Of a stretch of 51,107 bases of DNA, positions 9,354-51,107 are shown piece after piece. Both the position numbers and the translations under genes were made by a program. The DNA is from Candidatus Omnitrophota bacterium (lineage in GTDB: Bacteria > Omnitrophota > Gorgyraeia > Pluralincolimonadales > Pluralincolimonadaceae). The notes below the pieces were generated by a model. That model saw only the letters and a list, made by a program, of their open reading frames with translations. It made no database searches and was not told the DNA's origin. The first letter of the stretch is position 1, and the number at the start of each line of letters is the position of its first letter. Location: the NCBI GenBank assembly GCA_003141835.1, contig PLNR01000005.1, positions 1 through 51,107 on the forward strand. Direction: 5' to 3'.

Positions 9354-9695
9354 ATGAAATATATTATTGCTATAATCCAGCCTGACAGGCTAGATGATGT
9401 GTTGACGAAATTGGAAGAAAAGGAGATACACCTGGTGACCGTGACCAGCGTGATGGGCCGCGGCCGCCAGAAAGGCATCTCCGAGGTCTACAGGAGCCAT
9501 AAGGAGGCGGGCAGCCTGCTTAAAAAGGTAAAGCTGGAGATCGCCGTGAATGACGATTTCGTAAAACCTGCGGTAGAGGCGATAAAGTCAGGCGCGCGCA
9601 CAGGCCACGTCGGCGACGGCAAGATATTCATCCTCGACCTGCAGGAAGCCATCCGCATCCGCACGGGCGAGAAGGGCGGCCCGGCGATAGGATAA
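9354..9695 (+). CDS. glnK: PII protein, amtB-linked copy 2
   Basis: PII motifs; near-identical to 7452-7793. Confidence 0.9.
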   Translation: MKYIIAIIQPDRLDDVLTKLEEKEIHLVTVTSVMGRGRQKGISEVYRSHKEAGSLLKKVKLEIAVNDDFVKPAVEAIKSGARTGHVGDGKIFILDLQEAIRIRTGEKGGPAIG

Positions 9696-9787
9696 TGTGT
9701 ATTTCGAAATGCCGACCGGACAATCAGGTTCGCGCAGAGCCGATTTATGACGCAGTTGCTATCGGTCGAAGCGAGTAATAAATAAGG

Positions 9788-9853
9788 CCAAGCGAACTGA
9801 TTGTCGGGGAGAGAGATTGAGATTTAACATCCGTGTAATATGGATTTAACATT
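9788..9853 (+). repeat. Intergenic direct repeat, copy 2 (copy 1 at 7827-7890)
   Basis: Direct sequence comparison with 7827-7890. Confidence 0.9.
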
Positions 9854-37257: not shown

Positions 37258-40200
37258 ATGATAGTTAGGCGTAGGTCTAACAAGAAAAAGGGATTTTTTA
37301 ACGAGATAAGGGCGGGATATTTTCCCGCCCTTTTGCTTTTTGCGGCGGTATTTTCGCTGGTTGCCGTCAGCAATGAGGCCGTTGCGGGCGCCCTCGGCCT
37401 CGTATTAAATGGAGATTTTGAAGAAGGCAGCACGGGAGGATTAGGCACGATCACTAGCTGGAACAGCTGGGGCGGCAGCGGCTACCATCACAACGATTAT
37501 AACCATACGATCAGCGGTTCAAAGGCGGTAAAGATCTGGTGGGATGACTCCGGCATATGGCAGAATTTTGCCGTAAGCGCTAGTACGGATTATTACTTTA
37601 ATGCTTATTTTTATAATCTATCTACCGACCCCTTGCACATTTGGAAGGGGTACCTTAAAGTCGAGTGGTATTTATCAGATGGATCTACGAAGATCTCGGA
37701 AGATACGATAGGCTTGCTTTATCCGGATGGTACCGATCCTTATAATATTTGGAAAAATGTATCCGCAAAAATTACGTCACCGGCCACTGCCGCTTACGGC
37801 AGGCCGGTCTTTGGGGTAAAAGACTGGACCTCGGCCGGCCCTTCGGGGGCGGTAAGCTTAGATGATCTGTATGCCGGCACATCCGCTCCGTCGGGACCCA
37901 CTGTGGGAGGCACCGCCTACACCGATGACACTGAGGCTACACCAATAGCCAGCGCGCCCGTTAAAGTGATCGTCTACGACAGCTCGTTGTCCAGGACGTC
38001 CATTTTTACGGCCACAACAAACGGCAGCGGCGTCTATTCCGTGACCCTGCAAAGCGGAGAGCTCGGCGCCGGCGATATAATCTGCGCCTACCTCGACGGC
38101 AGCGATAAGGCTACCTCCGTCTATAGGTGCGGGGGCACAAGCAACGTATCCAACCTAAACCTTTATAAAAACAATGTCGTCGTGTTTAATAACGACACAA
38201 CCGACATGACAAACGATGACCTTTACAAGGTTGACGACGGTAATGCAAATATACTCTATTCCGTCTCCGCCGCCTCAAGCGGCAACCTCACCGTCGACAG
38301 CAATATCGAACTCTTCCTCGAAGGCTCGAGCTCTAAAACCTTCGCCCCGGGAGGCAGTGTGACCCTCCAGGGCACAGGGGCCTTGAAGATAGAGTCAGGG
38401 GCGACGTTGAGCATGGCAAGTTTTGCCCTCACAGTCCCGGATAACTTGACAAACGCAGGCACCATAACCCAAACATCTTCAGGCACTACGACCCTCACAG
38501 GCACAACCAAGACCGTAACAGGCGGCGGCTCGACAACGTTCTATAACCTGACAGTGTCGGGCACGTATACCTTAAGTACCAACATAAAGGCATCCAATAC
38601 CCTGACCATAGACGACAATAAATACCTGTCAGTAAATGCGTCAAGCGCCTCAGTGACGGTCGAGGTCGGGGGAAGCATAGTAAATAACGGGAACGCTGCC
38701 GGCGAAGGCATAGTCCTTGCGAATTCGACCAATTCGATAATAATAAAGGGCTCGGCAGGCGCCAAGAGGGCCCTTACCAACAATAACATCGACTTTAACG
38801 GTAAGACCGTCCACCTCGATAACATGGACGTCCAGGTGGCGACTAACCTAGGTGCGGCAGGCGACACCATAGTCCTCGACTCAGCCTGCGAGTTCGACGA
38901 TATGACGGTCAACCCCGGCACGCTTAATAACTCGGGAGGCTACGATTTAACGGTAAGCGGCAGCTGGGAGGTCTCCGGCACGGGGACTTTCACGCCGGGC
39001 ACAGGCACAGCCTCGGTGAGCTTAACCGGCACAGCCAAGAACATAACCACCACCTCCAGTAATTCCTGCGCCTTTTATAACCTGGTCGTCTCAGGCAGTT
39101 ATACCCTGCAATCGTCTATAGGGGTGGCCCATAATATGACGATCAGCAGTACGGGCACCCTGGATGCCTCTAATAAGACTATCACCCTGACGGGCAGCGC
39201 GGGCAATTTTGATGTTGAGGGTACCTTCACTTACGGCACTTCTACGGTTGTCATACAGGCAACAGGCGATATCCAGGGCGCAGCCAGCGGCGGTACTTTT
39301 AAAGCCGGATTTTATAATTTGACTATCGGTAAAGTGTCGGCGACCCCGACTGTAACAGTCACCGCCGGCGGCACGTGGGAAGGCATACAGGTTTATCATA
39401 CCCTGACCATACTATCGGGAGCCACTCTTACCGGCGTCGCCGACAGAAAAGTCCAGATGCTAAACGGCTCGACGGTAGTCAACAGCGGCACGTGCAACCC
39501 GGTAGAGTTCGAGTTTAACCTTGGCAGCAGCGCAGGCACCGCCACCATGGGCGGCGGCAGTTACACAGGCGACCACATCCAGATCGTCCAGGGCACAGTG
39601 ACCCTGGCCGGGGCCGTGACCGCCTCTTATGAGTGGAGAATAGGTTATTGGCAATCTAACTCGCCCGGTGTCCTTAACCTTAATGGTTATAATCTTACAT
39701 CCTCAGGAAGTATTATCCTCGGGCAACATACATTCGGGGACCAGGTAGGCCAGCTAACCACCGGTTCGGGAAGCATAACTGCGCTCAACCTTTTTGTAAA
39801 CGAGACGATAACCAGCGGCGGCGACCACTGTTCTATTACCGTGGGAAGCGGCAGTGTTTGCACTTTTTCAGGAGCAGTTTTGACCCACGCGAACGGCATC
39901 ATTACAAATAACGGTTCGATCATTTGCGGAAATTTCACTAACGAGAGCGGCGGTACCTATACCGCCAATACCGCAAGCTGTTCCATATCCTGCGCGGATT
40001 TCACCAATGACGGGACGTTTACCAACAGCCAGACCAATACCGTATCCGCCTCGGGAAATGTGGCAATAACCGCTTTCGGCGCCACAACCACCAAGAACAC
40101 CCTTACCATGACAGGCGACGGCAAATACATAAATTCCAGCGCGAATCTGGGCAATCTCGTCAATAACGGCGGTACCACCGGCAGCAGGAATTATATCCAT

Positions 40201-43200
40201 ACCAATAACCTGGTCCTCGACGGGACGTTTACAAACAACTCCGGGAAATATTTTACCACCCTTGACGACGACGCCTTGACCAGCAGGAACCTCACTACCG
40301 GCGCCGGCGGCGTAAACGGCACGATAAGTATAAACGGCCCTTTCTACGCGAACGCCTCGACGATAACCATTGACGACGCCGCAACAGGCAACTTCGATGT
40401 GAACGTACAGGCTAATTTTCAATGGGGCACTTCTCTCGTCGACCTTAAGGGCACGGGCTCGATAATCGGCCATAGCCACTACATAACTTTCAATAGTTTG
40501 ACCTGCGGCTATGCCGGCAAGACTACTTCGATCAACATGGGCGCCGACTGGATGGGCTTCGATATCCATGGGACGTTGACCGTCGGGACAGGCGTTCTCC
40601 AGCAAAGCATCGCTAATCAAAAGATTTTTGTATACGGCGCTACGATCGTAAACAGCGGCACAATTTACGTGACGGAGCTTTGGTTCGACTTAGCCGCCCC
40701 CACCATCATGAATGGCGGGGATCTATCGACCACCCAGATATTTATTGCCAACGGCGCCACATTGACCCTTACCGGGAACGTGACCCATTCCGGAAATTGG
40801 CAGACAGGCCATCAGGGCCAGAATACGACTAACGTCCTTAACGTCAACCAGTACAATATTGTAAGTTCGGGATGGTTCGACGCGGGAGAATGGAACCTGA
40901 CCGAATTTGCATGCGTAGGCCAGGTGAACGTTACGACAGGCAACATCACGGTAGGATTGGATATGCATGTATATCCCAGAAAAAACGGCTCTGATGTCTC
41001 TTCCATTAATTTAGGAAGCGGCACTCACAGCATCGGGCTTGAACTTGGTATTGTAACGAGCGGCACCGTCCCTGAATCCACCGCAAATGGCGTGCTCACT
41101 CTTTCAAGCGCCACAACCACCGTAGGGGGGAATTTTAAGAACCTGGGGACTTCCGCCCAGGTCATCGCCAACGGCGGCACGCTCATATTTAACGACAATA
41201 CCAGGACCTCTACCATATACGGAAGCAGCTCATTTTATAACCTGACCTGCGCGACCGCGGGCAAGACATTGCTTTTTAATGTGGAAACGGGCCTTAATAA
41301 TTACATCACGACCGTCACCCGCAACCTGAATTTTTCCGGCAGCTCGGGTACAGGCAACAAGATCACTCTGGGCCGTTCGGACGGAAGCGGTTCACAGCAA
41401 TGGGCCATATATCCGGCGGGTTCTAAGGGCGCCTCGCCCGGTTGGACGGTTGCGTACGTGGATGTGTCGAATTCCGTAAACCTCAATAGCAATTATATCA
41501 ATCCCGATAATTCCAACGACGGCGGGAATAACAGCAACTGGTTTTCTCCGACCCTGGTCAAATTATCGGCTTTTTACGCCATCGGTTATTTTGACAAGGT
41601 GGGGGTATATTGGAAGACGGCCTCGGAATACAATAACGCGGGTTTTAATGTTTACGTAAGCGAGAATCCCGGCGGCCCGTATAAGAAGCTGAATCCCGCG
41701 TTGATCGCCGGCCTGGGCACATCCACTACCGGAGGGGAATATTCATATACCGATACCGGCATAATAAACAAAAGGACTTATTATTATAAACTGGAGGACG
41801 TGGAATTAAGCGGCCGCTCAAAGATGCACGGGCCGGTAGCGGCCCATCCGGGCCTGGATTCGGACGGCGACGGTATGACTGACGATTGGGAGACCTATTA
41901 CGGGCTTGACCCGCATAATCCCAACGACGCCTTGCTTGACCCGGACGGCGACGGGCTCACTAATTTAGATGAATTTTTGAAGGGTACGGACCCGACACAA
42001 AAAGATGAAGAGGCGCAGGAGGGAGTGCGCATAATCAGTTCGGACGAAACAGGCATAACCCTGGAGCTCGTAACCTCAGAATTTAAAGCGACTCCTAAAA
42101 AAATAGACAAAGTCACATACCAGGTCCTTAAGATCCCCGGATATGAGCACGGGTATACCGACGAACCGGGAAAGCCCCAAATGCCGCTCAAGCCGGTCCT
42201 CTTGGGTATCCCGCAAGACGTATCCTGCGCTATTGCGGACCTGGACCTTGATGTGACCGAGCTGTCCGGATACAATATCTATCCTGTCAGGAGTTCCCGC
42301 CTTGTAGACGACCTAAGGAAAACAATGGCCGGAAAAGAAGACCTGAAAGCGGAAAAACCAGTGTTCAAAAAGATAGAATCACATCTCGTAATAGACGAGA
42401 AATTTTATTCCACGGATACTTATTATCCTGCCGATATAGTCAGCCTCGGGTTTGTGGGAGATATGAGAGGCCAAAGAACGGCTTGCGTGGACATCTCCCC
42501 GCTGGTTTTCAACCCGGCCCAGCACAGCTTAAAATTTTATAAAAGGATAAAGTTCAAATTGCAATTTAAGAGTGCCGAAGCCGGTCCTCCGATAGGGCCG
42601 CCCCCGTCTTCGCCGAGCCTGGATGCCAAGATAAAGATATACACAACGAAAGAAGGATTGTGCCGGATAGGATGGGACGCGCTTTGGAATGCCAAATTTT
42701 ATGATGCCATCTGGCTGGATCCGCGCAAGATAAGGCTTTATAACAAGGGCCAGGAAGTGGCAATACGCATCGCCGGGGAAGAGGACGGGAGGTTCAATAG
42801 CGACGACTACATCGAATTTTACGCCCAGGCCAATAATTCAAAATATTCAACGGAGAACGTCTATTGGCTCACCTACACCCAGGGAAAAGGCCTGAGGATG
42901 GAGAATATTCCCAGTAGCCCCGGTGTCCCGGTCGCGGTCCCGGACAGGTATAGGGCGAAAGTGCACCTCGAGAAGAACGATTTTTACTGGGGTGAGCGCG
43001 AAGGCCCCGAAGATATCGACCGCTGGTTCTGGAGCAGCTACATCTGGGGAGGTACCGAGGTCAATTACCCTATAGGCCTTAAGGATGTAAACCCCCTCCA
43101 TCCGGGAGACGAAGCGAGAGTGAAGATCGCCTATTATGCCCTGTTTGACGTCGACCATCATACGTTGTCCCGCCTGAATGGCGGGACCGTCAATGATGCG

Positions 43201-44922
43201 TCATGGACGGGCCAATGTGAGCATGTGGCGGAGGTGAGCGTGCCGCAGAACGTTCTCGCCGAGGGGGGTAATACCATAACCCTGGCGGCGCAACTTGCCC
43301 CGGGGACAGAATATGACTTGCTTGTGCCCAATTATTTTGAGGTGGAGTACTGGCGGAATTTCGTCGCGTCCGACAATGCCCTGGATTTTTCTTACAGGCC
43401 GGTTGGCGGCGGAGTGACAGAATTTAATATATCCGGGTTTACGAAAGATAATGTCGAATTATTTGATATAACCGAACCGGCCAGGGCCAGGTACGTTACC
43501 GGGTCCGAGACCGTATTCCAACCGAACGGTTCATATTCGCTGGTATTTAAATACGATTTTAAACCGGATGAAGGGAAGAGGTTCCTCGCCTTGACCCCGG
43601 ATAAAGCGGATCCGGCCGGGCGCTTAAAGATCTACGCGCCTTCGGGCCTCTCTTCACCGGAAAACAAGGCCGATTATATAATGATCTCGTACGGGGCCTT
43701 TAAAGACAACCTCTACCCCCTTAAGAGATTGTATGAAAGGAAGGGGCTAAGCGTCAGCGTGGTCGACGTAGAGGATGTATACGATGAGTTTAATTACGGC
43801 CTAATGAGCCCCTATGCGATAAAGGATTTTTTAAGGTACGCCTATAATACATGGCAGCGCCCGGCGCCTACATACGTGCTTCTGGTCGGAGACGCAAATT
43901 ACGATTACAGGGATAACCTGGGTTCCGGAAAAATAAACTACGTCCCCGCTTATCTTTTGCCCAACACGCCGTATCTGGGCGAGACCGCTTCGGACAACTG
44001 GTTCGTATGCTTGGACCCTCCCCAGCTTATCGCCGGTCAGGTCCAGGATGATGTATTGCCGGATATGTTCATCGGCAGGATCCCCGCGAGCGGGAAGGAT
44101 GAGGTCGATAACGTGGTCAAAAAGATCATAGATTATACCTCCCTGCCTTACAGGTATCAGAGCAAAAAAGTCACTTTTGCGGCAGATGACGAGGCTATCT
44201 TTGAACAGACCTCTGATAACCTGGTGCAATACCTGCCCGGGAACATGATCCCGTCGAAATTATATCTTTCCGGCTATACGGATTATTCGCGGTTTACCCG
44301 GGACCTGATAAACGAGATCAATAGCGGCACGGTCTTGCTGAATTACGCAGGACACGGCTCGACCAACCTTTGGACCGAGGAGGAATTATTTAATACGGGC
44401 ACGGTCGGCCTGTTAAATAATTACCGCAAGTATCCCTTTGTCGTCTCCTTCGATTGCCTGGACGGTTATTTCCTTGACCCGGACGACGGGTTTAGGTCTA
44501 TGGCCGAGGTGTTTTTAAATAAAAAAGATGCCGGCGCGATCGCCTGTTTTTCTCCTACGGGCATGGGAATGCCGGAAGGGCAGCAAGCCTTAAGCGAAGA
44601 ATTATTTAAGTCGATCTTTGTGGACGGTAATTACAGGCTCGGCCCGGCCACGACCCGGGCGAAGATCAACTTTTATTCCAGGATGGGAGGGCAGTATAAG
44701 GACCTGATAGAGACGCAGACTCTCTTCGGAGACCCGGCCTTGTCTTTAAAGACGGGAGTAAAAGAGGAGAAGAAGTGGCGGAAGAAATCATTGGGCCGGC
44801 AGCCCCTGGCGGTTTCCTCAGACGATGATTTTAAGGACATCCTCCAGCAGCTTATGCAAAACGCCAAAGATAGCGGGAAATGGGGCAACGGTTTTAAAAG
44901 ATCCAGAAGGCCGGAAGACTAG
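37258..44922 (+). CDS. 2554-aa secreted protein: CBM-like head, beta-helical repeat stalk, Ig/Fn3-like module, Ca-binding repeats, propeptide and C25 (gingipain/PorU-family) peptidase
   Basis: Signal peptide; NGDFEEG head; G/T/S/N-rich repeats (FYNLT); DSDGDG/DPDGDG; VEDVYDEFNYG, YVLLVGDA, SDNWF, PDMFIGRIP, YAGHGS (His2366), SFDCLDG (Cys2400), LFGDP. Confidence 0.88.
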   Translation: MIVRRRSNKKKGFFNEIRAGYFPALLLFAAVFSLVAVSNEAVAGALGLVLNGDFEEGSTGGLGTITSWNSWGGSGYHHNDYNHTISGSKAVKIWWDDSGIWQNFAVSASTDYYFNAYFYNLSTDPLHIWKGYLKVEWYLSDGSTKISEDTIGLLYPDGTDPYNIWKNVSAKITSPATAAYGRPVFGVKDWTSAGPSGAVSLDDLYAGTSAPSGPTVGGTAYTDDTEATPIASAPVKVIVYDSSLSRTSIFTATTNGSGVYSVTLQSGELGAGDIICAYLDGSDKATSVYRCGGTSNVSNLNLYKNNVVVFNNDTTDMTNDDLYKVDDGNANILYSVSAASSGNLTVDSNIELFLEGSSSKTFAPGGSVTLQGTGALKIESGATLSMASFALTVPDNLTNAGTITQTSSGTTTLTGTTKTVTGGGSTTFYNLTVSGTYTLSTNIKASNTLTIDDNKYLSVNASSASVTVEVGGSIVNNGNAAGEGIVLANSTNSIIIKGSAGAKRALTNNNIDFNGKTVHLDNMDVQVATNLGAAGDTIVLDSACEFDDMTVNPGTLNNSGGYDLTVSGSWEVSGTGTFTPGTGTASVSLTGTAKNITTTSSNSCAFYNLVVSGSYTLQSSIGVAHNMTISSTGTLDASNKTITLTGSAGNFDVEGTFTYGTSTVVIQATGDIQGAASGGTFKAGFYNLTIGKVSATPTVTVTAGGTWEGIQVYHTLTILSGATLTGVADRKVQMLNGSTVVNSGTCNPVEFEFNLGSSAGTATMGGGSYTGDHIQIVQGTVTLAGAVTASYEWRIGYWQSNSPGVLNLNGYNLTSSGSIILGQHTFGDQVGQLTTGSGSITALNLFVNETITSGGDHCSITVGSGSVCTFSGAVLTHANGIITNNGSIICGNFTNESGGTYTANTASCSISCADFTNDGTFTNSQTNTVSASGNVAITAFGATTTKNTLTMTGDGKYINSSANLGNLVNNGGTTGSRNYIHTNNLVLDGTFTNNSGKYFTTLDDDALTSRNLTTGAGGVNGTISINGPFYANASTITIDDAATGNFDVNVQANFQWGTSLVDLKGTGSIIGHSHYITFNSLTCGYAGKTTSINMGADWMGFDIHGTLTVGTGVLQQSIANQKIFVYGATIVNSGTIYVTELWFDLAAPTIMNGGDLSTTQIFIANGATLTLTGNVTHSGNWQTGHQGQNTTNVLNVNQYNIVSSGWFDAGEWNLTEFACVGQVNVTTGNITVGLDMHVYPRKNGSDVSSINLGSGTHSIGLELGIVTSGTVPESTANGVLTLSSATTTVGGNFKNLGTSAQVIANGGTLIFNDNTRTSTIYGSSSFYNLTCATAGKTLLFNVETGLNNYITTVTRNLNFSGSSGTGNKITLGRSDGSGSQQWAIYPAGSKGASPGWTVAYVDVSNSVNLNSNYINPDNSNDGGNNSNWFSPTLVKLSAFYAIGYFDKVGVYWKTASEYNNAGFNVYVSENPGGPYKKLNPALIAGLGTSTTGGEYSYTDTGIINKRTYYYKLEDVELSGRSKMHGPVAAHPGLDSDGDGMTDDWETYYGLDPHNPNDALLDPDGDGLTNLDEFLKGTDPTQKDEEAQEGVRIISSDETGITLELVTSEFKATPKKIDKVTYQVLKIPGYEHGYTDEPGKPQMPLKPVLLGIPQDVSCAIADLDLDVTELSGYNIYPVRSSRLVDDLRKTMAGKEDLKAEKPVFKKIESHLVIDEKFYSTDTYYPADIVSLGFVGDMRGQRTACVDISPLVFNPAQHSLKFYKRIKFKLQFKSAEAGPPIGPPPSSPSLDAKIKIYTTKEGLCRIGWDALWNAKFYDAIWLDPRKIRLYNKGQEVAIRIAGEEDGRFNSDDYIEFYAQANNSKYSTENVYWLTYTQGKGLRMENIPSSPGVPVAVPDRYRAKVHLEKNDFYWGEREGPEDIDRWFWSSYIWGGTEVNYPIGLKDVNPLHPGDEARVKIAYYALFDVDHHTLSRLNGGTVNDASWTGQCEHVAEVSVPQNVLAEGGNTITLAAQLAPGTEYDLLVPNYFEVEYWRNFVASDNALDFSYRPVGGGVTEFNISGFTKDNVELFDITEPARARYVTGSETVFQPNGSYSLVFKYDFKPDEGKRFLALTPDKADPAGRLKIYAPSGLSSPENKADYIMISYGAFKDNLYPLKRLYERKGLSVSVVDVEDVYDEFNYGLMSPYAIKDFLRYAYNTWQRPAPTYVLLVGDANYDYRDNLGSGKINYVPAYLLPNTPYLGETASDNWFVCLDPPQLIAGQVQDDVLPDMFIGRIPASGKDEVDNVVKKIIDYTSLPYRYQSKKVTFAADDEAIFEQTSDNLVQYLPGNMIPSKLYLSGYTDYSRFTRDLINEINSGTVLLNYAGHGSTNLWTEEELFNTGTVGLLNNYRKYPFVVSFDCLDGYFLDPDDGFRSMAEVFLNKKDAGAIACFSPTGMGMPEGQQALSEELFKSIFVDGNYRLGPATTRAKINFYSRMGGQYKDLIETQTLFGDPALSLKTGVKEEKKWRKKSLGRQPLAVSSDDDFKDILQQLMQNAKDSGKWGNGFKRSRRPED

Positions 44923-44939: not shown

Positions 44940-45782
44940 ATGAAAAGAGAGCTTAAAATAGAGGTCGCTAACCATGTCGTGGGCCTCAACATCGATGAAG
45001 AGCGCCACCCGTCTTTTATAAAAGACGTCCTTGGGGCGTATAATATGTTCATTTCCGGCGCTGAGCCGACGATCTCCGTCGATGTAGAGTTAACCGGCGA
45101 TGCGCCTCCGGAATACTTCCCTTCTTCAAGGCTCATTTTTGAAAATAACACTATTGCCATAGAAGATGACTGTCTTTTAGGCAGTTTAGACCTGAAAAAA
45201 AAGCGCGGCCGGATAAAATTAAATCCCGTAAATCCCCTGTATCCGCTGGGCACATTCCTGAGGAATGTTTATACGTTTTTGGTGGTACTGGAAGACAAAG
45301 GGGTAGCCCTGCACGCAGTTGGCGTATTGGAAGAGGAAGAGGCGCATGTATTTATCGGTCCGTCAACCGCGGGCAAGTCCACCGTGGCGAGCCTCTCCCC
45401 GGGCAAAGTCATCCTGAGCGACGACCTGATACTTGCCAAAAAAGTTAACGGAGAATTTAAAGTTTTTCCTACCCCGGCCTGGGGCGACAGGCAAACAGGG
45501 CCGAGGCGGAACAGGCCTTACCGGATAAAGAATTTGTTTAAATTAATAAAAGACAAGACGGTGTACCTGGAAAAATTCTCGCCCGCGTATGCCTTGGCGA
45601 ATATATTTACCGTACCCCATATACCGGCTGAATTGATCCCAGAGGACGAGTTGCTGACTACATTTTCAGAACTTTTATCCGCTGTGCCGTGTTATGGGAT
45701 GCATTTCCTGCCGGAGCCGTCGTTCTGGCGGCATATCGAAGGGCTTAAACCTGAAATAGAGTTCTCAAAGAGAGAGAGTTGA
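44940..45782 (+). CDS. HPr-kinase-related P-loop protein
   Basis: LHAVGV, FIGPSTAGKST (Walker A) and ILSDD, the HPrK-type signature. Confidence 0.75.
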   Translation: MKRELKIEVANHVVGLNIDEERHPSFIKDVLGAYNMFISGAEPTISVDVELTGDAPPEYFPSSRLIFENNTIAIEDDCLLGSLDLKKKRGRIKLNPVNPLYPLGTFLRNVYTFLVVLEDKGVALHAVGVLEEEEAHVFIGPSTAGKSTVASLSPGKVILSDDLILAKKVNGEFKVFPTPAWGDRQTGPRRNRPYRIKNLFKLIKDKTVYLEKFSPAYALANIFTVPHIPAELIPEDELLTTFSELLSAVPCYGMHFLPEPSFWRHIEGLKPEIEFSKRES

Positions 45783-45784
45783 CC

Positions 45785-46060
45785 ATGGATATGAAGACCA
45801 GGATACCGGCCAGGTCCGGCAAGACCGCTTCAAGGGTCATAGACGGGGAAGCCGTTATAGTCCTTTTGGATAAACAGGAGACCATTGTCTTGAGCGACGT
45901 CGGTTCGCGCATATGGGAGATCATGGACGGCAAGAAGGATATAGGCGAGATCAGCGGCGCGATCATATCGGAATTCGACGCCACGCATGAAGAGGCATTG
46001 AAAGACATTACCGAGTTCGTGGAGGATATGGTACAGAGAGGGGCGGTGGAGGTCAAATAA
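45785..46060 (+). CDS. PqqD-family RiPP recognition element (RRE)
   Basis: RVIDGEAVIV...LSDVGSRIWEIMDG...EFD...DITEFVEDM..RG. Confidence 0.92.
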   Translation: MDMKTRIPARSGKTASRVIDGEAVIVLLDKQETIVLSDVGSRIWEIMDGKKDIGEISGAIISEFDATHEEALKDITEFVEDMVQRGAVEVK

Positions 46061-46061
46061 G

Positions 46062-47114
46062 ATGAGAGAAGCCGATAAGGGCCGGGACCAGTATTTAAGG
46101 ATATACCGCAAGACGATGGATAATTCTATCTGCTTCCTTGCCCATTGGGAATTGACCTATAAATGCAACTTGGGATGCAGGCATTGTTACGCCGCCGGAA
46201 GGAAAGACGGTAAGGAATTTTCTTACGAAGAGGCGAGGCCTATCATAGACGAACTCAGGGATATGGGCTGCCTCTATCTCATCTTCAGCGGGGGCGAGAT
46301 CTTGATGAGGGATGATTTTTTCGATATCGCGTCGTATGCGAGAGGGCAGGGTTTCGCGCTGCGGCTGATGACGAACGCCACCCTGATCGACGAAGCTGTC
46401 AGCGAGAAGATAGCGTCTCTCTACCCTTTAGCGGTCGAGACGAGCATATATGCCGCTGATAAGGACCTTCACGATGCCATCACTTCTTCCGCGGGTTCTT
46501 TCGATAAGACGATAAAAGCTGCGAGGCTCCTCAAGGAAAGGAACGTAAGGGTCATCTTTAAATTCCTTATCATGAATGACAATATCGGAGAGTTCAGGGC
46601 CGTAAGATCATTAGCGGGAGAGATCGGCGCGGATTTTGTATTCGATTTTTGCGTCGTAGGCAAAAATGACGGCTCTAAGGCCCCATTAAGATACAGGCTC
46701 GATAAGGAGAAGATCAAAGATTTTTTTATATCGAACGATCTCCCTCTGGGAAAAAAGGAAGCCGATGACGAGGATCTTCTTTGTATCGCGGGCCTTAATA
46801 ATATTTTCATTACGCCCCATCTCGATGTTTATCCCTGTATCGGGCTGGACGTGAAATTAGGCAACCTCCGCGAAGGGAGCCTCAAGGATATATGGCGTTC
46901 CTCGGAGGAATTGAATTTTGTAAGAAACATAAACCTGCCCGACTTGCCGAAGTGCAAAAGCTGCGGCCTCGCTCAATTTTGTTTTAGATGCTCGGGAATA
47001 GCGCTTTCCGAAGATAACGATATTTTAGGGCCGTCGAATTTCGACTGTTCGGTCGCCGCAGCGGTAAGTGAAATTGCGGCGGAAAAAGAGGAGTTGATAA
47101 ACAATGGAAAATAG
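46062..47114 (+). CDS. Radical SAM/SPASM peptide maturase
   Basis: CNLGCRHC, SGGE, and SPASM cysteines (CIAG, VYPC, CKSC, CFRC, C). Confidence 0.93.
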   Translation: MREADKGRDQYLRIYRKTMDNSICFLAHWELTYKCNLGCRHCYAAGRKDGKEFSYEEARPIIDELRDMGCLYLIFSGGEILMRDDFFDIASYARGQGFALRLMTNATLIDEAVSEKIASLYPLAVETSIYAADKDLHDAITSSAGSFDKTIKAARLLKERNVRVIFKFLIMNDNIGEFRAVRSLAGEIGADFVFDFCVVGKNDGSKAPLRYRLDKEKIKDFFISNDLPLGKKEADDEDLLCIAGLNNIFITPHLDVYPCIGLDVKLGNLREGSLKDIWRSSEELNFVRNINLPDLPKCKSCGLAQFCFRCSGIALSEDNDILGPSNFDCSVAAAVSEIAAEKEELINNGK

Positions 47115-47262
47115 CCCGCGTAAAGACAAGAAAAGGCCGTACCGCAAACCGGCCGTCATTTTTTCCAAAAAGATAGAGGTGATATCCACGGTTTGTAATA
47201 CATCCAGGGGAGGCGAAAGCGGTTGCAGGAAAGCAATCCCTTGTTTTCGCCTTCTTTCATAA
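47104..47262 (+). CDS. Putative RiPP precursor peptide (52 aa, not in ORF track)
   Basis: Hand translation: MENSPRKDKKRPYRKPAVIFSKKIEVISTVCNTSRGGESGCRKAIPCFRLLS*. GAGGAG RBS at 47088-47093; YxxPxV leader motif; three Cys in the C-terminal part. Confidence 0.82.
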   Translation: MENSPRKDKKRPYRKPAVIFSKKIEVISTVCNTSRGGESGCRKAIPCFRLLS

Positions 47263-47280
47263 ATAAGGGCCGGACCTGAG

Positions 47281-47784
47281 ATGACGGAAGCAACGGCGCG
47301 CGTACGGGAATCGTTCTCTATCATGCGTGAGGCCATGATACGAGGGGGGTCTGCGATGAGGCTGCGCGCTAAGGGAGACAGCATGGGCCCGCTGATAAAA
47401 GAAGGGGACGTCATAGTCATAAGGCCCAGCACGTTTGACGAGATTGGGATCGGCGATATAGCCGTGTTTGGCGTCAGGGGTAAGCTGTGCGCCCACAGGC
47501 TTATAATGAAACGCGCCAAGGGCAACCGGCATGTCTTTGTTACGAAATCAGACAGGACTTTTACGGCCGACGCGCCTTTCGGGCATAAAAATTTATTCGG
47601 CAAGATATCCCATATCCAAAAAAACGCGCTGACGTTAAACCTCGAATCGTCCTTTTGGGTGCCGCTCAACCGCGTCCTGGGCTTATATCATTTAATACTG
47701 TGCCAGGCTGCCGTCCGTCTTCGCCTTCTTTACGCTGTATTTAAAAAAGGCGATGCTCAACGGGATGAGCAACGCGGAGAATAG
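47281..47784 (+). CDS. S24/S26-family serine peptidase
   Basis: GDSMGP.IKEGD (Ser), GDIAVF, AHRL (His base), TKSD. Confidence 0.85.
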   Translation: MTEATARVRESFSIMREAMIRGGSAMRLRAKGDSMGPLIKEGDVIVIRPSTFDEIGIGDIAVFGVRGKLCAHRLIMKRAKGNRHVFVTKSDRTFTADAPFGHKNLFGKISHIQKNALTLNLESSFWVPLNRVLGLYHLILCQAAVRLRLLYAVFKKGDAQRDEQRGE

Positions 47785-48498
47785 CAGCAAAAACCCCGCC
47801 TCTTTGGCGAGTTGCGCTAAAGAATAGCCTTTATAGACCGATAATTCCATGGCCCGGATAGCGTAAGTGATGGGAAAAAATTTCGCCAGGAATTGAAGCC
47901 ACCCCGGCAATACGGTAATGGGGAAATATACCCCGCCTATCAAACCCTCGACGCTGTTTATTATCCAACCCAAAGGATTCCCGCGCTTGAAGACCATAAT
48001 AAAACCTGCGGATATTATCCCTAAACCGCTGAAAGACGCGACTGTCAAAAACAGGATCACAATAGCGGATAATATATTTATGTGGGTAAAGTCTATTTTA
48101 AACAGGAAGATCCCCAATGCGATATAGATGGCCATATCCATGGTCGCGAAGATCAGGTTCCACAAGGCCATAGAGAGTAATATGGCCGGTATCCCGGCGG
48201 GGGTCAGGAGTATCGCTTCCAGGGTCCCCTGCGCTTGTTCGGACTGTATCCGGCTTGAAAAAGAACCCAACCCGATGCCGACATAGCTGAAAAACGCCAT
48301 ACCCAGCAGGACATAGGAAAAATAATTCACGCCGAATTCTTCCAAATGGCTGACCAGCATCCGGCCGAATAATTTATCGATAAAGAAATAACCCAGCAGG
48401 CTTATCAGTACCCCGAAGATATTGGCGAGAAAAGCCAGTTTATAACTGGACTCGATAAGGAAGTCTTTCTTTATGAAGGCCAGCGGTATTTTGCACAT
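47692..48498 (-). CDS. ABC-2 type exporter permease
   Basis: EQAQGTLEAILLTP, GGVYFPITVLPGWLQ..FFPITYAI; multiple TM segments. Confidence 0.9.
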   Translation of the reverse strand: MCKIPLAFIKKDFLIESSYKLAFLANIFGVLISLLGYFFIDKLFGRMLVSHLEEFGVNYFSYVLLGMAFFSYVGIGLGSFSSRIQSEQAQGTLEAILLTPAGIPAILLSMALWNLIFATMDMAIYIALGIFLFKIDFTHINILSAIVILFLTVASFSGLGIISAGFIMVFKRGNPLGWIINSVEGLIGGVYFPITVLPGWLQFLAKFFPITYAIRAMELSVYKGYSLAQLAKEAGFLLLFSALLIPLSIAFFKYSVKKAKTDGSLAQY

Positions 48499-48499
48499 C

Positions 48500-49282
48500 C
48501 TATGACCCCGCAGTCAGCTTCACGAATACCTCGCCAAGCGTAGCGGTCGGACCGCCCACTTGCTTGCGTAATTCTTCCAATGTCCCGAATGCGCGGAGCC
48601 TTCCTTTATCCAGGACCATGAACAGGTCGCAGAAATCCAGGGCTTCGTCCATATGGTGGGTGGCAATTATTGCGGTTTTATTCCGCGCCTTCACTAAAGT
48701 TTCTTTGATGAATCCCCTTAAGCTCAAAGCGGCGGCGTAATCGAGGCTTTTTGTCGGCTCATCCAGTAACAGGAGTTCCGGGTCGTGAAGCAGCCCCCTC
48801 ATCAACGCAAAACGCCTCTTCATGCCCGTCGAGTAGGAATCGAACCTTTTACCCGCGTAATCGACCGCAAATAATTCCGACAGCTCGCCTATCCTGGCCC
48901 CGGCGGTTTTCCTGTCGAGCCCGTAGAGGGCGGCAAAGAATTCCAGGTTTTGCCTGCCCGTGAGGCGCCAATAGAAACTCCTTTCTTCCTCGGCCACCAA
49001 TCCGATGGACATCTTTATCTTCTCTTCAAGGCCGGAGCCGTTTAATAAGACAGAGCCCCTGTCAGGCAAAAGGAGCGTAGCGATTATCTTTAAAAGGGTG
49101 GTCTTGCCCGCCCCGTTCGGCCCCAGCACGGCAAGTATCTTCCCCCTCTCGAGGCGGAAGGAAACATCATCGAGCGCCCTGACCGGTATCCCGCGCCCGA
49201 GATCGAATTTGATCAATTTTCCGAAAGAGAGGGGAGGGGTAAAATCCTTGGTTAGCCCGTCTACTTCTAATATAGGTCTCAT
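48500..49282 (-). CDS. ABC exporter ATP-binding protein
   Basis: GPNGAGKTT, YSTGMKRR, LLLDEPT, ATHHM. Confidence 0.95.
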   Translation of the reverse strand: MRPILEVDGLTKDFTPPLSFGKLIKFDLGRGIPVRALDDVSFRLERGKILAVLGPNGAGKTTLLKIIATLLLPDRGSVLLNGSGLEEKIKMSIGLVAEEERSFYWRLTGRQNLEFFAALYGLDRKTAGARIGELSELFAVDYAGKRFDSYSTGMKRRFALMRGLLHDPELLLLDEPTKSLDYAAALSLRGFIKETLVKARNKTAIIATHHMDEALDFCDLFMVLDKGRLRAFGTLEELRKQVGGPTATLGEVFVKLTAGS

Positions 49283-49311
49283 CTGGTTAGGTTTTATTTC
49301 GCCTTTGACTA

Positions 49312-49340
49312 ACTATACCACCGCAAAAAGTAATTGGCAA
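49312..49340 (-). promoter_or_regulatory. Sigma70-type promoter for the ABC exporter
   Basis: Minus strand TTGCCA-17 bp-TATAGT. Confidence 0.5.
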
Positions 49341-49366
49341 CCAGTTTATTCGTAATAAGAAAACCA

Positions 49367-49395
49367 TTGAAAGAAAGGCGGGATGCTGTTATAAT
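49367..49395 (+). promoter_or_regulatory. Sigma70-type promoter for the wza-like gene
   Basis: TTGAAA-17 bp-TATAAT. Confidence 0.65.
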
Positions 49396-49405
49396 AGCCG
49401 CTGAG

Positions 49406-50176
49406 ATGAAAGATAAAAATCAGTTTATCGCAGTAAGCCTTATCCTTTGCCTCCTAGCTTTTTTGCCCGCCCCTGTCTTTTCCGAAGAGAAACAGCCCGA
49501 AACCGGTAATAGAGGTTATCTTGCGGGAGGCCCTAAAGCAGCGGCTCCGGCCCCGGCCGTAGTAGAAGAGGAATACTGGACGAGGCCCCTGGAATATCAC
49601 ATAGGTAATGGCGATGTTATCGAAATTTCAGTGTGGGACATTGCCGCACTTTCCAAGGATATAACGGTCCGGCCGGACGGGAAAATTTCATATCCGTTGA
49701 TAGGCGAGGTCGACGTCTACGGATTAAGCATGAACCAGTTGAACGACGAGTTGACGAAAAGATTTTCCGTTTACGTCAGGCATCCGCAAGTTACGGTCAT
49801 CCTCAAGAAATTCGAAGGCAAGAGCGTATTTGTATTAGGTGAAGTCAAGAGCCCGGGTGTTTATAAGTATGGCGGACAAATACGGCTTATAGAGGCCATC
49901 AGCGTGGCGGGCGGGTTCACTCTTGATGCGGTCCCGAGAAGCGTATTGGTGATAAGGGGGGATATTACGAAGGATAAAAAACCCCAACTTATAAAGATCG
50001 ATGTGGCGAATATCTATACAAAAGCATATTTACGTAACAATATTTTATTGCAGCCGAATGACATCGTTTTCGTCTCCCGCTCGATCATAGCAAACGCGAC
50101 AGATTTCTTCACGAAGATAAATCAACCGTTGACCACGTATATTTTGACTAAACAAATCGTCAACCCGGGCTGGTAG
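49406..50176 (+). CDS. Polysaccharide export protein (Wza-like, Poly_export + SLBB)
   Basis: YHIGNGDVIEISVW, VRPDGKISYPLIGEV, VLGEVKSPG, AGGFT, LQPNDIVFV. Start reassigned to ATG 49406. Confidence 0.9.
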   Translation: MKDKNQFIAVSLILCLLAFLPAPVFSEEKQPETGNRGYLAGGPKAAAPAPAVVEEEYWTRPLEYHIGNGDVIEISVWDIAALSKDITVRPDGKISYPLIGEVDVYGLSMNQLNDELTKRFSVYVRHPQVTVILKKFEGKSVFVLGEVKSPGVYKYGGQIRLIEAISVAGGFTLDAVPRSVLVIRGDITKDKKPQLIKIDVANIYTKAYLRNNILLQPNDIVFVSRSIIANATDFFTKINQPLTTYILTKQIVNPGW

Positions 50177-50177
50177 A

Positions 50178-51107
50178 ATGGTTTTAGATGAATTAGCAAA
50201 AAGGGCGCATGAGGAAGGACTCAGCGCCCTTTTGTATTACGGCATTAAAGATACAAGCCTTTTAGGCTTGTTACCGCCCGAATTTATTTCAGGATTGGCC
50301 CGCCATTATTACAATAACGCCTCTTTCAACCTGTTCGCCCAAAAGAAATTAGGCGAAGTTCTGGCCGCTTTTGAAACGGCCGGGATCGACGCTATAGTCT
50401 TAAAAGGCCTCTCGCTGATGGATACGGTATATCCAAATATAGCCGTACGCCCCATAACCGATATAGACCTTTTGATCAAAGAAAGCGATCTTCCGCGCGC
50501 GAAAAATAAGTTGAACGAATTAGGATACGCTTGCGAAGAATATTGCCGGGAGGATTTCTATAACGGCGAAATAGCCATCGACATCCATTCGAGCCTGTTA
50601 AATTCGGTCAGGGTGAAGAGCCGGCATAAAACCTGCGAGGTCGATAACGCCGAGTTATGGAGGGATTCCGGTTCCATGATTTTGGACGGGAGAAAGGCCA
50701 GGGTCCTCTCGCCCGAGGACCAGTTGATCTCGCTCTGCCTGCACTTGTTCTATCACCACGGCCTGAAAAGGCTGATCTGGTTCGTGGATATTTACGCGTT
50801 GTTAAATACGCATGAAAATGTATTTGATTGGGCCAGGTTCCTGGACAAATGCCGCAGGTTTAAGGTCAAAAGCCCAGTTTACTATTGTCTTTCGGCTGCC
50901 GAAATAAAACTCGGGACCCTTGTCCCGCGGGAAGTTTTGGAAAGGTTAAAACCGCCGGCCGAGAACATCTTGACGAGGAAGATCCTGGATCTGGCGATGC
51001 ATAAAGATATATCCGAGAAGGTAAGGTTCTATTTTATCCTGTTATCTTTGGAAAAGCTTAAGGATAAGCTTTTGTACTTATTCGAGATCATACTGCCGCG
51101 CCCAAGC
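50178..51107 (+). CDS. Nucleotidyltransferase family protein (NTP_transf_5-like), 3' truncated by the window edge
   Basis: Hand translation: MVLDELAKRAHEEGLSALLY...IVLKGLSL..VYP..RPITDIDLLI...IDIH...; no stop seen before 51107, which is why it is missing from the ORF track. Confidence 0.85.
   Translation, partial: MVLDELAKRAHEEGLSALLYYGIKDTSLLGLLPPEFISGLARHYYNNASFNLFAQKKLGEVLAAFETAGIDAIVLKGLSLMDTVYPNIAVRPITDIDLLIKESDLPRAKNKLNELGYACEEYCREDFYNGEIAIDIHSSLLNSVRVKSRHKTCEVDNAELWRDSGSMILDGRKARVLSPEDQLISLCLHLFYHHGLKRLIWFVDIYALLNTHENVFDWARFLDKCRRFKVKSPVYYCLSAAEIKLGTLVPREVLERLKPPAENILTRKILDLAMHKDISEKVRFYFILLSLEKLKDKLLYLFEIILPRPS

Follow-up and report, generated by a model that had tools for sequence, protein, structure and literature searches.

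Organisation of the locus

The window analysed here is the whole 51,107-nucleotide stretch of contig PLNR01000005.1 from a Candidatus Omnitrophota bacterium (assembly GCA_003141835.1). Towards its 3′ end lie the features below, with the genes that a sequence-only reading had named in 44940-51107 all recovered there by ORF and family assignments.

37258..44922, + strand: giant secreted protein of 2554 aa carrying a C25 propeptide (PF08126, E 6.3e-14) and, C-terminally, a Peptidase_C25 domain (PF01364, residues 2140-2497, E 9.1e-82)
44940..45782, + strand: HprK/PEPCK-fold P-loop kinase-like protein of 280 aa, putative counterpart of LppK and ScmC
45779..46060, + strand: discrete RiPP recognition element (RRE) of the PqqD family (PF05402, E 2.3e-14), predicted lasso/LPP (linear polyphosphorylated peptide) type
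46062..47114, + strand: radical SAM (rSAM)/SPASM enzyme (PF04055, 2.2e-21; PF13186, 2.3e-10)
47088..47093, + strand: Shine-Dalgarno GAGGAG, read in the sequence 10 nt ahead of the precursor start codon (ATG)
47104..47262, + strand: candidate precursor peptide of 52 aa, without family match
47281..47784, + strand: archaeal/SipW-type signal peptidase I-like leader peptidase (Peptidase_S24, 3.1e-09), putative LppS counterpart
47692..48498, - strand: ABC-2 type permease (PF01061, E 2.3e-15), putative exporter
48500..49282, - strand: ABC transporter ATPase, permease partner (PF00005, E 3.3e-27; DrrA-like, 192.9 bits)
49334..50176, + strand: Wza-like outer-membrane polysaccharide export protein (PF02563, E 6.3e-24, with SLBB domains; pepcterm_export at 129.3 bits, cut-off 180)
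50178..51107, + strand: NTP_transf_5 nucleotidyltransferase-like enzyme (PF14907, E 1.1e-52), putative PsmN/LppN counterpart, the 349-aa ORF extending beyond the window as far as contig position 51227

The kinase and PqqD genes overlap by 4 nt, 1 nt separates the PqqD gene from the rSAM gene, the rSAM and peptide genes overlap by 11 nt, and 18 nt lie between the peptide and peptidase genes; this spacing fits an operon-like arrangement. The ABC-2 permease and ATPase genes lie on the opposite strand to these five and are not co-oriented with them, and the exporter could serve the polysaccharide instead of the peptide. Each part of the cassette is single-copy in the source genome, which is 97.7% complete.

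Conservation across loci

Forty-four loci from three phyla were selected by kinase homology, such that the kinase is present in 44/44 by construction. The expectation that the cassette genes would co-occur across genomes was borne out, with PqqD in 43/44 loci, an rSAM/SPASM gene within 3 kb in 37/44, an S24/S26 peptidase in 36/44 (three more carrying a lasso-B2-like Transglut_core3 gene instead), NTP_transf_5 in 34/44 and an exporter of some kind in 30/44. An ABC-2 permease is present in 23/44 loci and an MsbA-like exporter in 8 sister loci. The arrangement thus exceeds chance, the gene set being found again in 43 other loci. Gene order is shuffled among the 44 and parts are also fused, as S24-GNAT-NTP5 (3 loci), S24-methyltransferase-NTP5, S24-NTP5, S24-GNAT and S24-kinase, and these domain fusions tie the parts of the cassette together. 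On gene families and co-occurrence the assignment to a RiPP-type cassette holds, as does the combination of a lasso-type RRE, HprK-like kinase and PF14907 transferase with an rSAM/SPASM enzyme and a signal-peptidase-type leader peptidase.

The precursor peptide family

The 52-aa peptide has a Lys-rich N-terminus, a YRKPAV leader motif, Cys at 31, 41 and 47 and a C-terminal Ser. Its proposed role as the precursor gained support from a conserved peptide family, homologues being found by HMM in 28/44 loci and motif-only candidates in 7 more to give 37 peptides in 35/44 loci, every one with a [Y/W]xxP motif (for the family, [Y/W]xxPx[ILV]). No candidate was found in 9/44 loci, several of which end at a contig end. 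The C-terminal residue is Ser in 24/37 peptides and Thr in 4/37, against a background for Ser and Thr together of 13-16%. The first Cys falls 18-24 residues past the leader Tyr/Trp, at 19 or 21 residues in 20/31.

The Cys content of the peptides tracks the presence of the rSAM gene. Those beside an rSAM gene contain at least two Cys in 31/32 cases, with no Cys in 5/5 peptides from loci without a nearby rSAM gene. The motif-only candidate of locus L057 has no Cys despite two rSAM genes nearby.

The enzymes of the cassette

For the kinase-like protein Pfam gave no match, and its best NCBIfam match was ScmC at 20.8 bits (cut-off 125), with no curated family cut-off reached. The AF2 model (pLDDT 86) matched ATP-PEPCK best in Foldseek (E 1e-7), with matches to HprK/P at E 1.5e-3 to 2e-2. 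H125, G145-K146-T148 and D161 are kept in 44-45/45 homologues, and relatives of the protein match HprK_rel_A/B and hpr-ser, below cut-off. In the NTP_transf_5 enzyme, D95xD97 is kept in 33/34 homologues.

An RRE profile built from 23 homologues matched TbiB1 at 7e-18, LppB (9x8z_B) at 9e-14, PbaB1 at 5e-11 and PqqD itself at 6e-8; lying closer to LppB and the lasso B1 proteins than to PqqD, the RRE is by profile comparison of predicted lasso/LPP type. Complex prediction for the RRE with the precursor gave a score of 0.47, lending weak support, against 0.01 for the best of 3 controls. The mark used was reached by 58/80 solved complexes and 2/110 mismatched pairs, with only 7/80 solved complexes, plus both mismatches, reaching it at scores of 0.60 or below. 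At least 87% of contacts agreed between runs, with a partner pLDDT of at least 54, and the pass may reflect memory because similar RRE-leader complexes have already been solved.

In the rSAM enzyme, C35/C39/C42 are kept in 55/55 homologues, and the SPASM Cys 241, 259, 298 and 301 are conserved. Every NCBIfam family scored below cut-off, the top-scoring being the cofactor enzymes AhbD, NirJ2 and MftC with RiPP maturases lower, and as such the reaction type is a guess; the nearest solved relatives are SkfB (2e-10), CteB (3e-7) and SuiB (2e-6). The peptidase scores 48.6 bits on archaeal-type signal peptidase I (TIGR02228; cut-off 51.85, E 7.5e-13), with S34 kept in 30/34 homologues, H72-R73 in 34/34 and D91 in 33/34.

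Genomic setting and alternative explanations

Wza and/or Wzc genes occur in 18/44 loci, with the cassette sitting between wza and wzc in 6/44, such that the association with polysaccharide loci noted from the window alone recurs. As this placement recurs, it suggests that the peptide product acts on the cell surface or within the matrix of polysaccharide. The same setting could point to polysaccharide biosynthesis itself, with sugars or lipid-linked glycans as the substrates of the rSAM enzyme, transferase and ABC-2 pair, and with an incidental small ORF. The window cassette lies within a Wzx/Wzy/Wzc locus that also contains further radical-SAM and B12-radical-SAM genes, and in other systems glycans are exported by ABC-2 transporters. 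Against this stand the RRE in all but one of the loci, the peptide family with its lasso-type leader motif in 35/44, the tracking of Cys with the rSAM gene and the fusion of the peptidase to transferase or kinase, as well as the homologous LPP enzymes, which the main text of the LPP paper shows acting on peptide (PMC13381572), and this explanation is unlikely.

The C25 gene ends 18 nt upstream of the kinase gene on the same strand and is the only one in the source genome; it is an accessory neighbour of the cassette, possibly in one operon with it. C25 genes adjoin the cassette in 7/44 loci, being interleaved with it in three phyla, and among 401 sampled genomes of the phylum 21 carry C25, 4 of them next to the cassette. 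The giant C25 protein, or another protein, could therefore be the substrate in place of the 52-aa peptide, with the signal peptidase and rSAM enzyme maturing that protease, but a gene found in only 7/44 loci, against peptides in 35/44, and an N-terminus that on reading the translation resembles an ordinary secretion signal without a [Y/W]xxP motif make this very unlikely.

Membership of SynChlorMet (Scm), a PqqD/SPASM system raised in the sequence-only reading, is highly improbable at NCBIfam cut-offs. The best NCBIfam matches of the kinase and PqqD homologue are indeed ScmC and ScmD, and the rSAM enzymes of sister loci L059 and L064 score 364 and 346 bits on ScmF (cut-off 400), but the window itself lies far under every cut-off, with ScmD at 38.6/100, ScmE at 79.5/400 and ScmF at 70.7/400 besides the ScmC score above. 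Scm is defined by two radical-SAM genes, and the cassette has one; to our knowledge that definition does not include the peptidase, transferase and exporter, all present here.

A lasso-peptide cluster with its cyclase elsewhere in the genome is scarcely credible, for although the RRE and [Y/W]xxP motif are of lasso type, kinase and PF14907 tailoring genes are described in paeninodin-type lasso clusters (review PMC8498205) and the source genome has 6 Asn_synthase genes, a search of the neighbourhood beyond 51107 and of the genome found neither a lasso cyclase nor a B2 protease (Transglut_core3), the nearest Asn synthase genes lie more than 20 kb off and pass the glutamine-hydrolysing cut-off (519 against 267) while falling far under that for lasso cyclases (254 against 525), and homologues are present in 2/44 loci, over 8 kb away from the kinase.

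Proposed pathway

The locus is most probably (at a probability of about 0.72) a ribosomal-peptide cassette of the LPP type extended by a radical-SAM/SPASM enzyme. The cassette has no lasso cyclase, and its backbone matches that of the LPPs, reported to be linear and confined to Bacillota; it would therefore be an LPP-like variant with rSAM-modified, Cys-rich cores outside Bacillota. The direct basis is the gene set with its conservation and fusions, the conserved motifs and the way Cys covaries with the rSAM gene; from these we infer the chemistry.

In such a pathway the 52-aa precursor would be translated and its YxxPxV leader motif bound by the discrete PqqD-type RRE, which would hand the core to the rSAM/SPASM enzyme for modification of its cysteines, most likely into Cys-derived thioether cross-links, the spacing from the leader motif to the first Cys being fixed. 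The HprK-like kinase would phosphorylate Ser or Thr, with the C-terminal Ser favoured as in paeninodin, and the PF14907 transferase may place a sugar on the phosphate; in the review account the C-terminal Ser is the target of the paeninodin kinase, and PsmN adds hexoses (PMC8498205). The alternative kinase target would be a Ser/Thr where leader and core meet, like Ser3 of the LPPs. The SipW-type peptidase would then cut off the leader and the ABC-2 pair export the product.

Comparison with known systems

Paeninodin/pseudomycoidin-type lasso clusters resemble these loci in the B2-like Transglut_core3 gene of three sister loci, and differ in that the source genome has neither cyclase nor B2 protease, an rSAM enzyme and a signal-peptidase-type leader peptidase taking their place in the cassette. 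SynChlorMet (TIGR04248-04251) shares an HprK-like protein (ScmC being homologous to the cassette kinase family), a PqqD homologue and radical-SAM/SPASM, and the cassette departs from it in its single rSAM gene, its peptidase, transferase and exporter, and an identifiable precursor. With sactipeptide and ranthipeptide pathways the cassette has in common a PqqD-type RRE with radical-SAM/SPASM, a Cys-rich core and an rSAM enzyme nearest SkfB, CteB and SuiB, with kinase and nucleotidyltransferase tailoring, the signal-peptidase leader peptidase, the polysaccharide-locus setting and a thioether that is here predicted setting it apart.

The closest likeness is to the LPP family (Popov et al., Nat Commun 2026; PMC13381572), in which, according to the main text, a backbone of signal peptidase, RRE, HprK kinase, NTP transferase and exporter lies within capsule loci, the leader carries a YxxPxVL... 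motif, cleavage by the SipW-like peptidase requires the RRE, the kinase polyphosphorylates a core Ser (Ser3) and not the C-terminus, and the transferase LppN had no activity in a heterologous host. On that description the cassette has in common a SipW-type signal peptidase with a Ser/His/Asp triad as leader peptidase, a discrete lasso-type RRE (the LppB match above), an HprK-like kinase, an uncharacterised NTP transferase, a dedicated exporter, the YxxPx[VLI] leader motif, the polysaccharide-locus setting and the lack of a macrolactam cyclase. The main text of the LPP paper, as distinct from its supplements, makes no mention of radical SAM, SPASM or thioether, and the cassette is unlike the LPPs described there in its extra rSAM/SPASM enzyme and Cys-rich cores, in peptides ending in a conserved Ser/Thr, in a Cys occupying position 19 counted from the Tyr, the place of the phospho-acceptor Ser in the LPP consensus, and in the C25 peptidase of some loci. 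The exporter is a two-gene ABC-2 type where that of the LPPs is MsbA-like, as also in the 8 sister loci, and the cassette lies outside Bacillota, to which the LPPs are said to be restricted. The earlier view that the cassette matched no characterised pathway thus gives way for the backbone, which is that of the LPPs as their main text describes them (PMC13381572), and only the radical-SAM/Cys component, the kind of exporter and the taxonomic spread lie beyond that description.

The Cassette and Its Locus

The genes from position 44940 of the window onward form a genuine, conserved RiPP cassette of the kind that makes linear polyphosphorylated peptides (LPP), with an added radical-SAM enzyme. 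Five tightly packed genes (280, 93, 350, 52 and 167 aa) lie on the forward strand of a host genome of 1.57 Mb (11 contigs, 97.7% complete), separated in order by a 4-nt overlap, 1 nt, an 11-nt overlap and 18 nt, with the sequence GAGGAG 10 nt 5′ of the ATG of the small ORF. The sequence-only reading had named these genes correctly; the exporter is not co-oriented with them and is encoded on the reverse strand:

From 44940, forward strand: kinase-like protein, 280 aa, without a Pfam match
Forward strand: PqqD protein, the putative leader-binding RRE, 93 aa (PF05402, E 2.3e-14)
Forward strand: radical-SAM/SPASM enzyme, 350 aa, between the RRE and precursor genes
Forward strand: precursor ORF, 52 aa
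Forward strand: S24/S26 peptidase, 167 aa, best NCBIfam match the archaeal-type signal peptidase I
Reverse strand, 3′ of the peptidase gene: ABC-2 permease and separate ATPase
Next in order: Wza-like gene, then a PF14907 nucleotidyltransferase gene (E 1.1e-52) that ends at contig position 51227

The convergent peptidase and permease ORFs share 93 nt at their 3′ ends (window 47692-47784), and in L036, a locus from the same genus, the equivalent overlap is 69 nt.

Upstream, only 18 nt separate the first cassette gene from the end of the gene for a 2554-aa protein, which carries a C25 propeptide and, at its C-terminus, a Peptidase_C25 domain; farther 5′ lie WbqC-like, PIG-L, family-4 glycosyl transferase (PF00953), AAA_22 and HD-domain genes. 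The 3′ side carries Wzc, a Wzx-like flippase, three more radical-SAM genes, an epimerase and two glycosyltransferases, together with a gene that has only a weak IctB match and clusters with the Wzy_C (O-antigen-ligase-like) genes of other loci. As glycan genes flank it both upstream and downstream, the cassette is embedded in a polysaccharide locus, as had been proposed. Unusual sugar chemistry is suggested by the presence, on the 3′ side of this locus (contig C1 56147-60952, or 12148-16953 in the numbering of L002, a stretch of the window's own contig), of a tungsten-cofactor-maturase-like radical-SAM/SPASM gene and of two radical-SAM genes with B12-binding domains, one of them AprD4-like. 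The 1.57-Mb genome holds more than 20 radical-SAM-like ORFs, and one copy each of the kinase, PqqD, transferase, C25 and precursor genes.

Conservation Across Related Loci

A profile of the kinase found matches in 105/401 genomes sampled from the same phylum, and 40 of these loci were fetched and annotated, with profiles built for this analysis, alongside the window and three named loci (two from Chloroflexota and one from Acidobacteriota, confirmed among the matches listed). The 44 loci were picked by the kinase, which is therefore present in 44/44 by construction. PqqD is found in 43/44 loci, a radical-SAM/SPASM gene within 3 kb in 37/44, an S24/S26 peptidase domain in 36/44, NTP_transf_5 in 34/44, an ABC-2 permease in 23/44, an MsbA-like exporter in 8/44, Wza and/or Wzc in 18/44 and a C25 protein in 7/44, and as many loci end at contig ends, absences here are to be read as lower bounds.

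Gene order varies among the loci, and in three of them (L038, L045 and L060) the S24/S26 peptidase is missing and a Transglut_core3 gene, of the lasso-B2 family, adjoins PqqD instead. Several of the enzymes occur as fusions:

L043, L047, L065: S24-GNAT-NTP_transf_5
L049: S24-methyltransferase-NTP_transf_5
L073: S24-NTP_transf_5
L052: S24-GNAT
L042: S24-kinase

The GNAT or methyltransferase domains joined to the peptidase, the PF14907 transferase or both (listed for L052, L043, L047, L065, L049 and L042) suggest that some lineages carry out additional tailoring, perhaps of the new N-terminus. The two Chloroflexota loci, L003 (10937-11128) and L004 (10704-10892), each combine two C25 proteins and a Cys-free YxxP peptide with the kinase and PqqD, L004 also having an S24/S26 peptidase, while both a radical-SAM gene and PF14907 are absent within 10 kb; these loci look like LPP-like systems outside Bacillota.

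The Precursor Family

Homologues of the 52-aa ORF adjoin the radical-SAM gene in other loci. An HMM based on 20 seeds retrieved 30 peptides in 28 loci, and 7 further candidates came from scanning the other loci for the motif. All 37 share a Lys-rich start and a [Y/W]xxPx[ILVMF] motif, which in the window peptide is YRKPAV. Against PDB chains the precursor profile found nothing significant, the best match being ribosomal protein S21 (E 0.49).

Cysteine follows the radical-SAM gene: at least two Cys lie after the motif in 31/32 peptides with such a gene nearby (the exception, from L057, is a motif-only candidate), while peptides from loci without one have none (5/5), and the C-terminal residue is Ser in 24/37 peptides and Thr in 4/37, set against 13-16% Ser plus Thr for other ORF ends in the same loci, all of these counts including related, non-independent genomes whose cores nonetheless differ widely by eye in the alignment. 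The Cys-bearing cores hold 2-9 Cys. Where a radical-SAM gene is near, the first Cys lies 18-24 residues past the Tyr/Trp, and at 19 or 21 residues in 20/31 peptides. The LPP precursor motif is given as YxxPxVLxHQxIxFETxxS in the main text of PMC13381572, with the phospho-acceptor Ser at position 19 from the Tyr. In ten peptides the first Cys falls exactly at that position, from which we infer that the RRE-bound leader may set the distance to the modification site.

The Tailoring Enzymes

The kinase-like protein reaches no curated family cut-off. It has 29 homologues in a set of 5.8 billion proteins, and across their alignment the P-loop GxxGK[ST] is retained together with a His and an Asp. Searched against the PDB by sequence the kinase profile gave P-loop matches only, so that a fold search was needed; with an AlphaFold model (pLDDT 86) as the Foldseek query, the best matches were ATP-dependent PEP carboxykinases (E 1e-7), HPr kinase/phosphorylases being weaker (E 1.5e-3 to 2e-2). 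Relatives from other loci match models for ScmC, PEPCK, HPr(Ser) kinase and the HprK-related kinases A and B, none of them reaching the cut-off, and among 1.84 billion representatives the profile had 505 matches at E <= 1e-30, rising to 4985 when the limit was relaxed to E <= 1e-10. Taken together, the profile counts, the sub-cut-off matches and the fold place this family in the HprK/PEPCK P-loop fold, as a large branch that has not been curated. Its precomputed Pfam label, PF27840, is absent from the Pfam set used for the domain search and was not found in the literature searched.

The PqqD profile is closest to RREs of the lasso and LPP type, matching the lasso RRE TbiB1 (7.1e-18), the LPP protein LppB (9x8z_B, 9.2e-14) and PbaB1 (9x90_B, 5e-11) ahead of PqqD itself (6e-8); 9x8z is described as LppB with the LppA leader and 9x90 as PbaB1 with the PbaA leader (main text of PMC13381572). 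Complex prediction gave weak support for RRE binding to the precursor (score 0.47; best of three controls 0.01), with at least 87% contact agreement between runs and a partner pLDDT of at least 54. The mark used is reached by 58/80 solved complexes and 2/110 mismatched pairs, but with a score no higher than 0.60 just 7/80 solved complexes reach it, as do both mismatches. As similar RRE-leader complexes have already been solved, the predictor may have passed by reproducing structures that it had learned.

The peptidase falls just below the cut-off for archaeal-type signal peptidase I (TIGR02228; E 7.5e-13, 48.6 bits, cut-off 51.85) and its putative catalytic residues are conserved, Ser34 in 30/34 homologues, His72-Arg73 in 34/34 and Asp91 in 33/34. 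In L050, L061, L063 and L075 (4/34), Cys takes the place of Ser as the nucleophile in the GxSM motif. In the radical-SAM enzyme the CxxxCxxC cysteines (C35/C39/C42) and the SPASM auxiliary-cluster cysteines are conserved; its closest relatives of known structure are SkfB, CteB and SuiB, but among curated families cofactor enzymes score higher.

Proposed Maturation Pathway

From these assignments a pathway may be proposed in which the leader would be bound by the RRE and Cys residues then modified by the radical-SAM enzyme, thioether links being the most likely outcome. The kinase would phosphorylate Ser/Thr, and the C-terminal Ser is favoured because of the bias in end residues and by analogy with the paeninodin kinases, for which C-terminal Ser phosphorylation is described (PMC8498205). 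The transferase may add a hexose, the activity given for PsmN in the same source (PMC8498205). The leader would subsequently be removed by the peptidase and the product exported by the ABC-2 pair.

Relationship to SynChlorMet and Lasso Peptide Clusters

Membership of the SynChlorMet (Scm) cassettes was rejected, all four scores lying far under the NCBIfam cut-offs (ScmC 20.8/125, ScmD 38.6/100, ScmE 79.5/400 and ScmF 70.7/400). Sister loci come nearer: L059 (6745-9496) and L064 (8288-13277) have two or three radical-SAM/SPASM genes and reach 364 and 346 bits for ScmF (cut-off 400). Given these loci and the shared HprK-like protein and RRE, it looks as if LPP, cassettes of the window's type and those resembling Scm grade into one another as a single group. 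No precursor is known for Scm cassettes. In L064 a small reverse-strand ORF with a YxxP motif and three Cys (9649-9831) lies between the kinase and radical-SAM genes and is a candidate for the missing precursor.

A lasso peptide cluster was rejected, the cyclase and B2 protease both being absent beside the RRE. The sequence-only reading had left room for these genes past position 51107; no lasso cyclase was found within 13 kb downstream of the cassette, and PF13471 (the B2 transglutaminase-like protease) was not found in the window's genome. The closest Asn synthase genes lie at a distance of over 20 kb and score above the cut-off for glutamine-hydrolysing Asn synthase and far under that for lasso cyclase, and across the 44 loci Asn synthase homologues occur in two, separated from the kinase by over 8 kb. 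The six Asn synthase paralogues of the window's genome (C1:71529-73427, C1:78171-81140 and four on C8) score best on the XrtA/PEP-CTERM amidotransferase model, under its cut-off, and one is fused to a heptosyltransferase-like domain.

Links to Polysaccharide Export and C25 Proteins

In polysaccharide-export loci wza and wzc are usually neighbours. The entire cassette lies between them in 6/44 loci (L049, L052, L065, L066, L073 and L041) and the transferase does so in 8/44, a recurrent placement that supports, and does not prove, a functional tie of the cassette to the polysaccharide. C25 genes occur in only 21/401 sampled genomes and are cassette-adjacent in four of these; a giant secreted C25 protein adjoins the cassette in three phyla (the window, at 37258-44922, and L003, L004, L005, L036, L039 and L041), and in the Chloroflexota and Acidobacteriota loci C25 genes are interleaved with it. 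As such the linkage of C25 to the cassette is real, though confined to a minority of loci.

A bolder reading, which we consider improbable, is that the modified peptide is physically coupled to the Wza/Wzc-exported polysaccharide rather than being a free antibiotic-like product, with phospho-Ser and its extension by the PF14907 enzyme providing a point of glycan attachment or priming. Were this so, the product would be a peptide-anchored or peptide-capped surface polymer, C25 would in some lineages be a processing or transpeptidase partner, LPP, the window's cassette and SynChlorMet would form one superfamily of polysaccharide-linked peptide systems, and a precursor would be supplied for Scm-like cassettes.

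Irrespective of such coupling, the cassette broadens a RiPP family whose first description dates from 2026 (reported as linear and restricted to Bacillota), taking it into other phyla and into a form with probable radical-SAM modification of Cys-rich cores, defines a precursor family with a simple recognisable signature, links LPP to the orphan SynChlorMet cassette via a common HprK-like protein and reveals a polysaccharide-export association conserved across phyla. Together these make the role of the peptide testable by heterologous expression, which is of relevance to both peptide natural-product and cell-envelope research.

Comparison with Known Systems

The conserved CxxxCxxC and SPASM cysteines and the Cys-bearing core are features that the window shares with sactipeptide and ranthipeptide systems. 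The closest likeness is to LPP, the core set of which comprises a SipW-like peptidase LppS, a discrete RRE LppB, an HprK-like kinase LppK, an uncharacterised NTP transferase LppN and an MsbA-like pump, encoded in capsular polysaccharide loci of Bacilli (main text of PMC13381572). There, LppS (catalytic residues S29/H68/D93) cleaves after T-1 in a reaction requiring LppB, LppK places several phosphates on core Ser3 and LppN was without activity in the heterologous host (PMC13381572). The window's backbone matches this family, having a SipW/archaeal-type signal peptidase with a Ser/His/Asp triad, a discrete RRE of lasso/LPP type, a kinase that is HprK-like in fold and in its conserved P-loop, His and Asp (LppK being compared by description), and a YxxPxV leader motif, with the rest of the published consensus loosely matched. 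A cyclase is absent from the window's cassette, as it is from the linear LPP core set. The window's transferase is PF14907; the main text of PMC13381572 names no Pfam family for LppN, and the same family is assumed.

The window's cassette also differs from LPP. Export in the window is assigned to an ABC-2 permease and separate ATPase and not to an MsbA-like exporter, which is found in 8 of the 44 related loci. While the LPP core set has no cross-linking enzyme, the window's type has a radical-SAM/SPASM gene, with which Cys covaries, and Cys-rich cores; radical SAM, SPASM and thioether find no mention in the main text of PMC13381572, and a radical-SAM-containing form of LPP was not found in the literature searched, in which PMC13381572 was the sole paper on LPP, although the supplements of that paper may bear on co-occurring domains and on hits outside Bacillota. 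Its authors describe LPP as Bacillota-restricted and of unknown biological role (main text of PMC13381572), whereas cassettes of the window's type are found in other phyla, where they are further distinguished by a conserved Ser/Thr at the end of the peptide and, in some loci, by a C25 neighbour.
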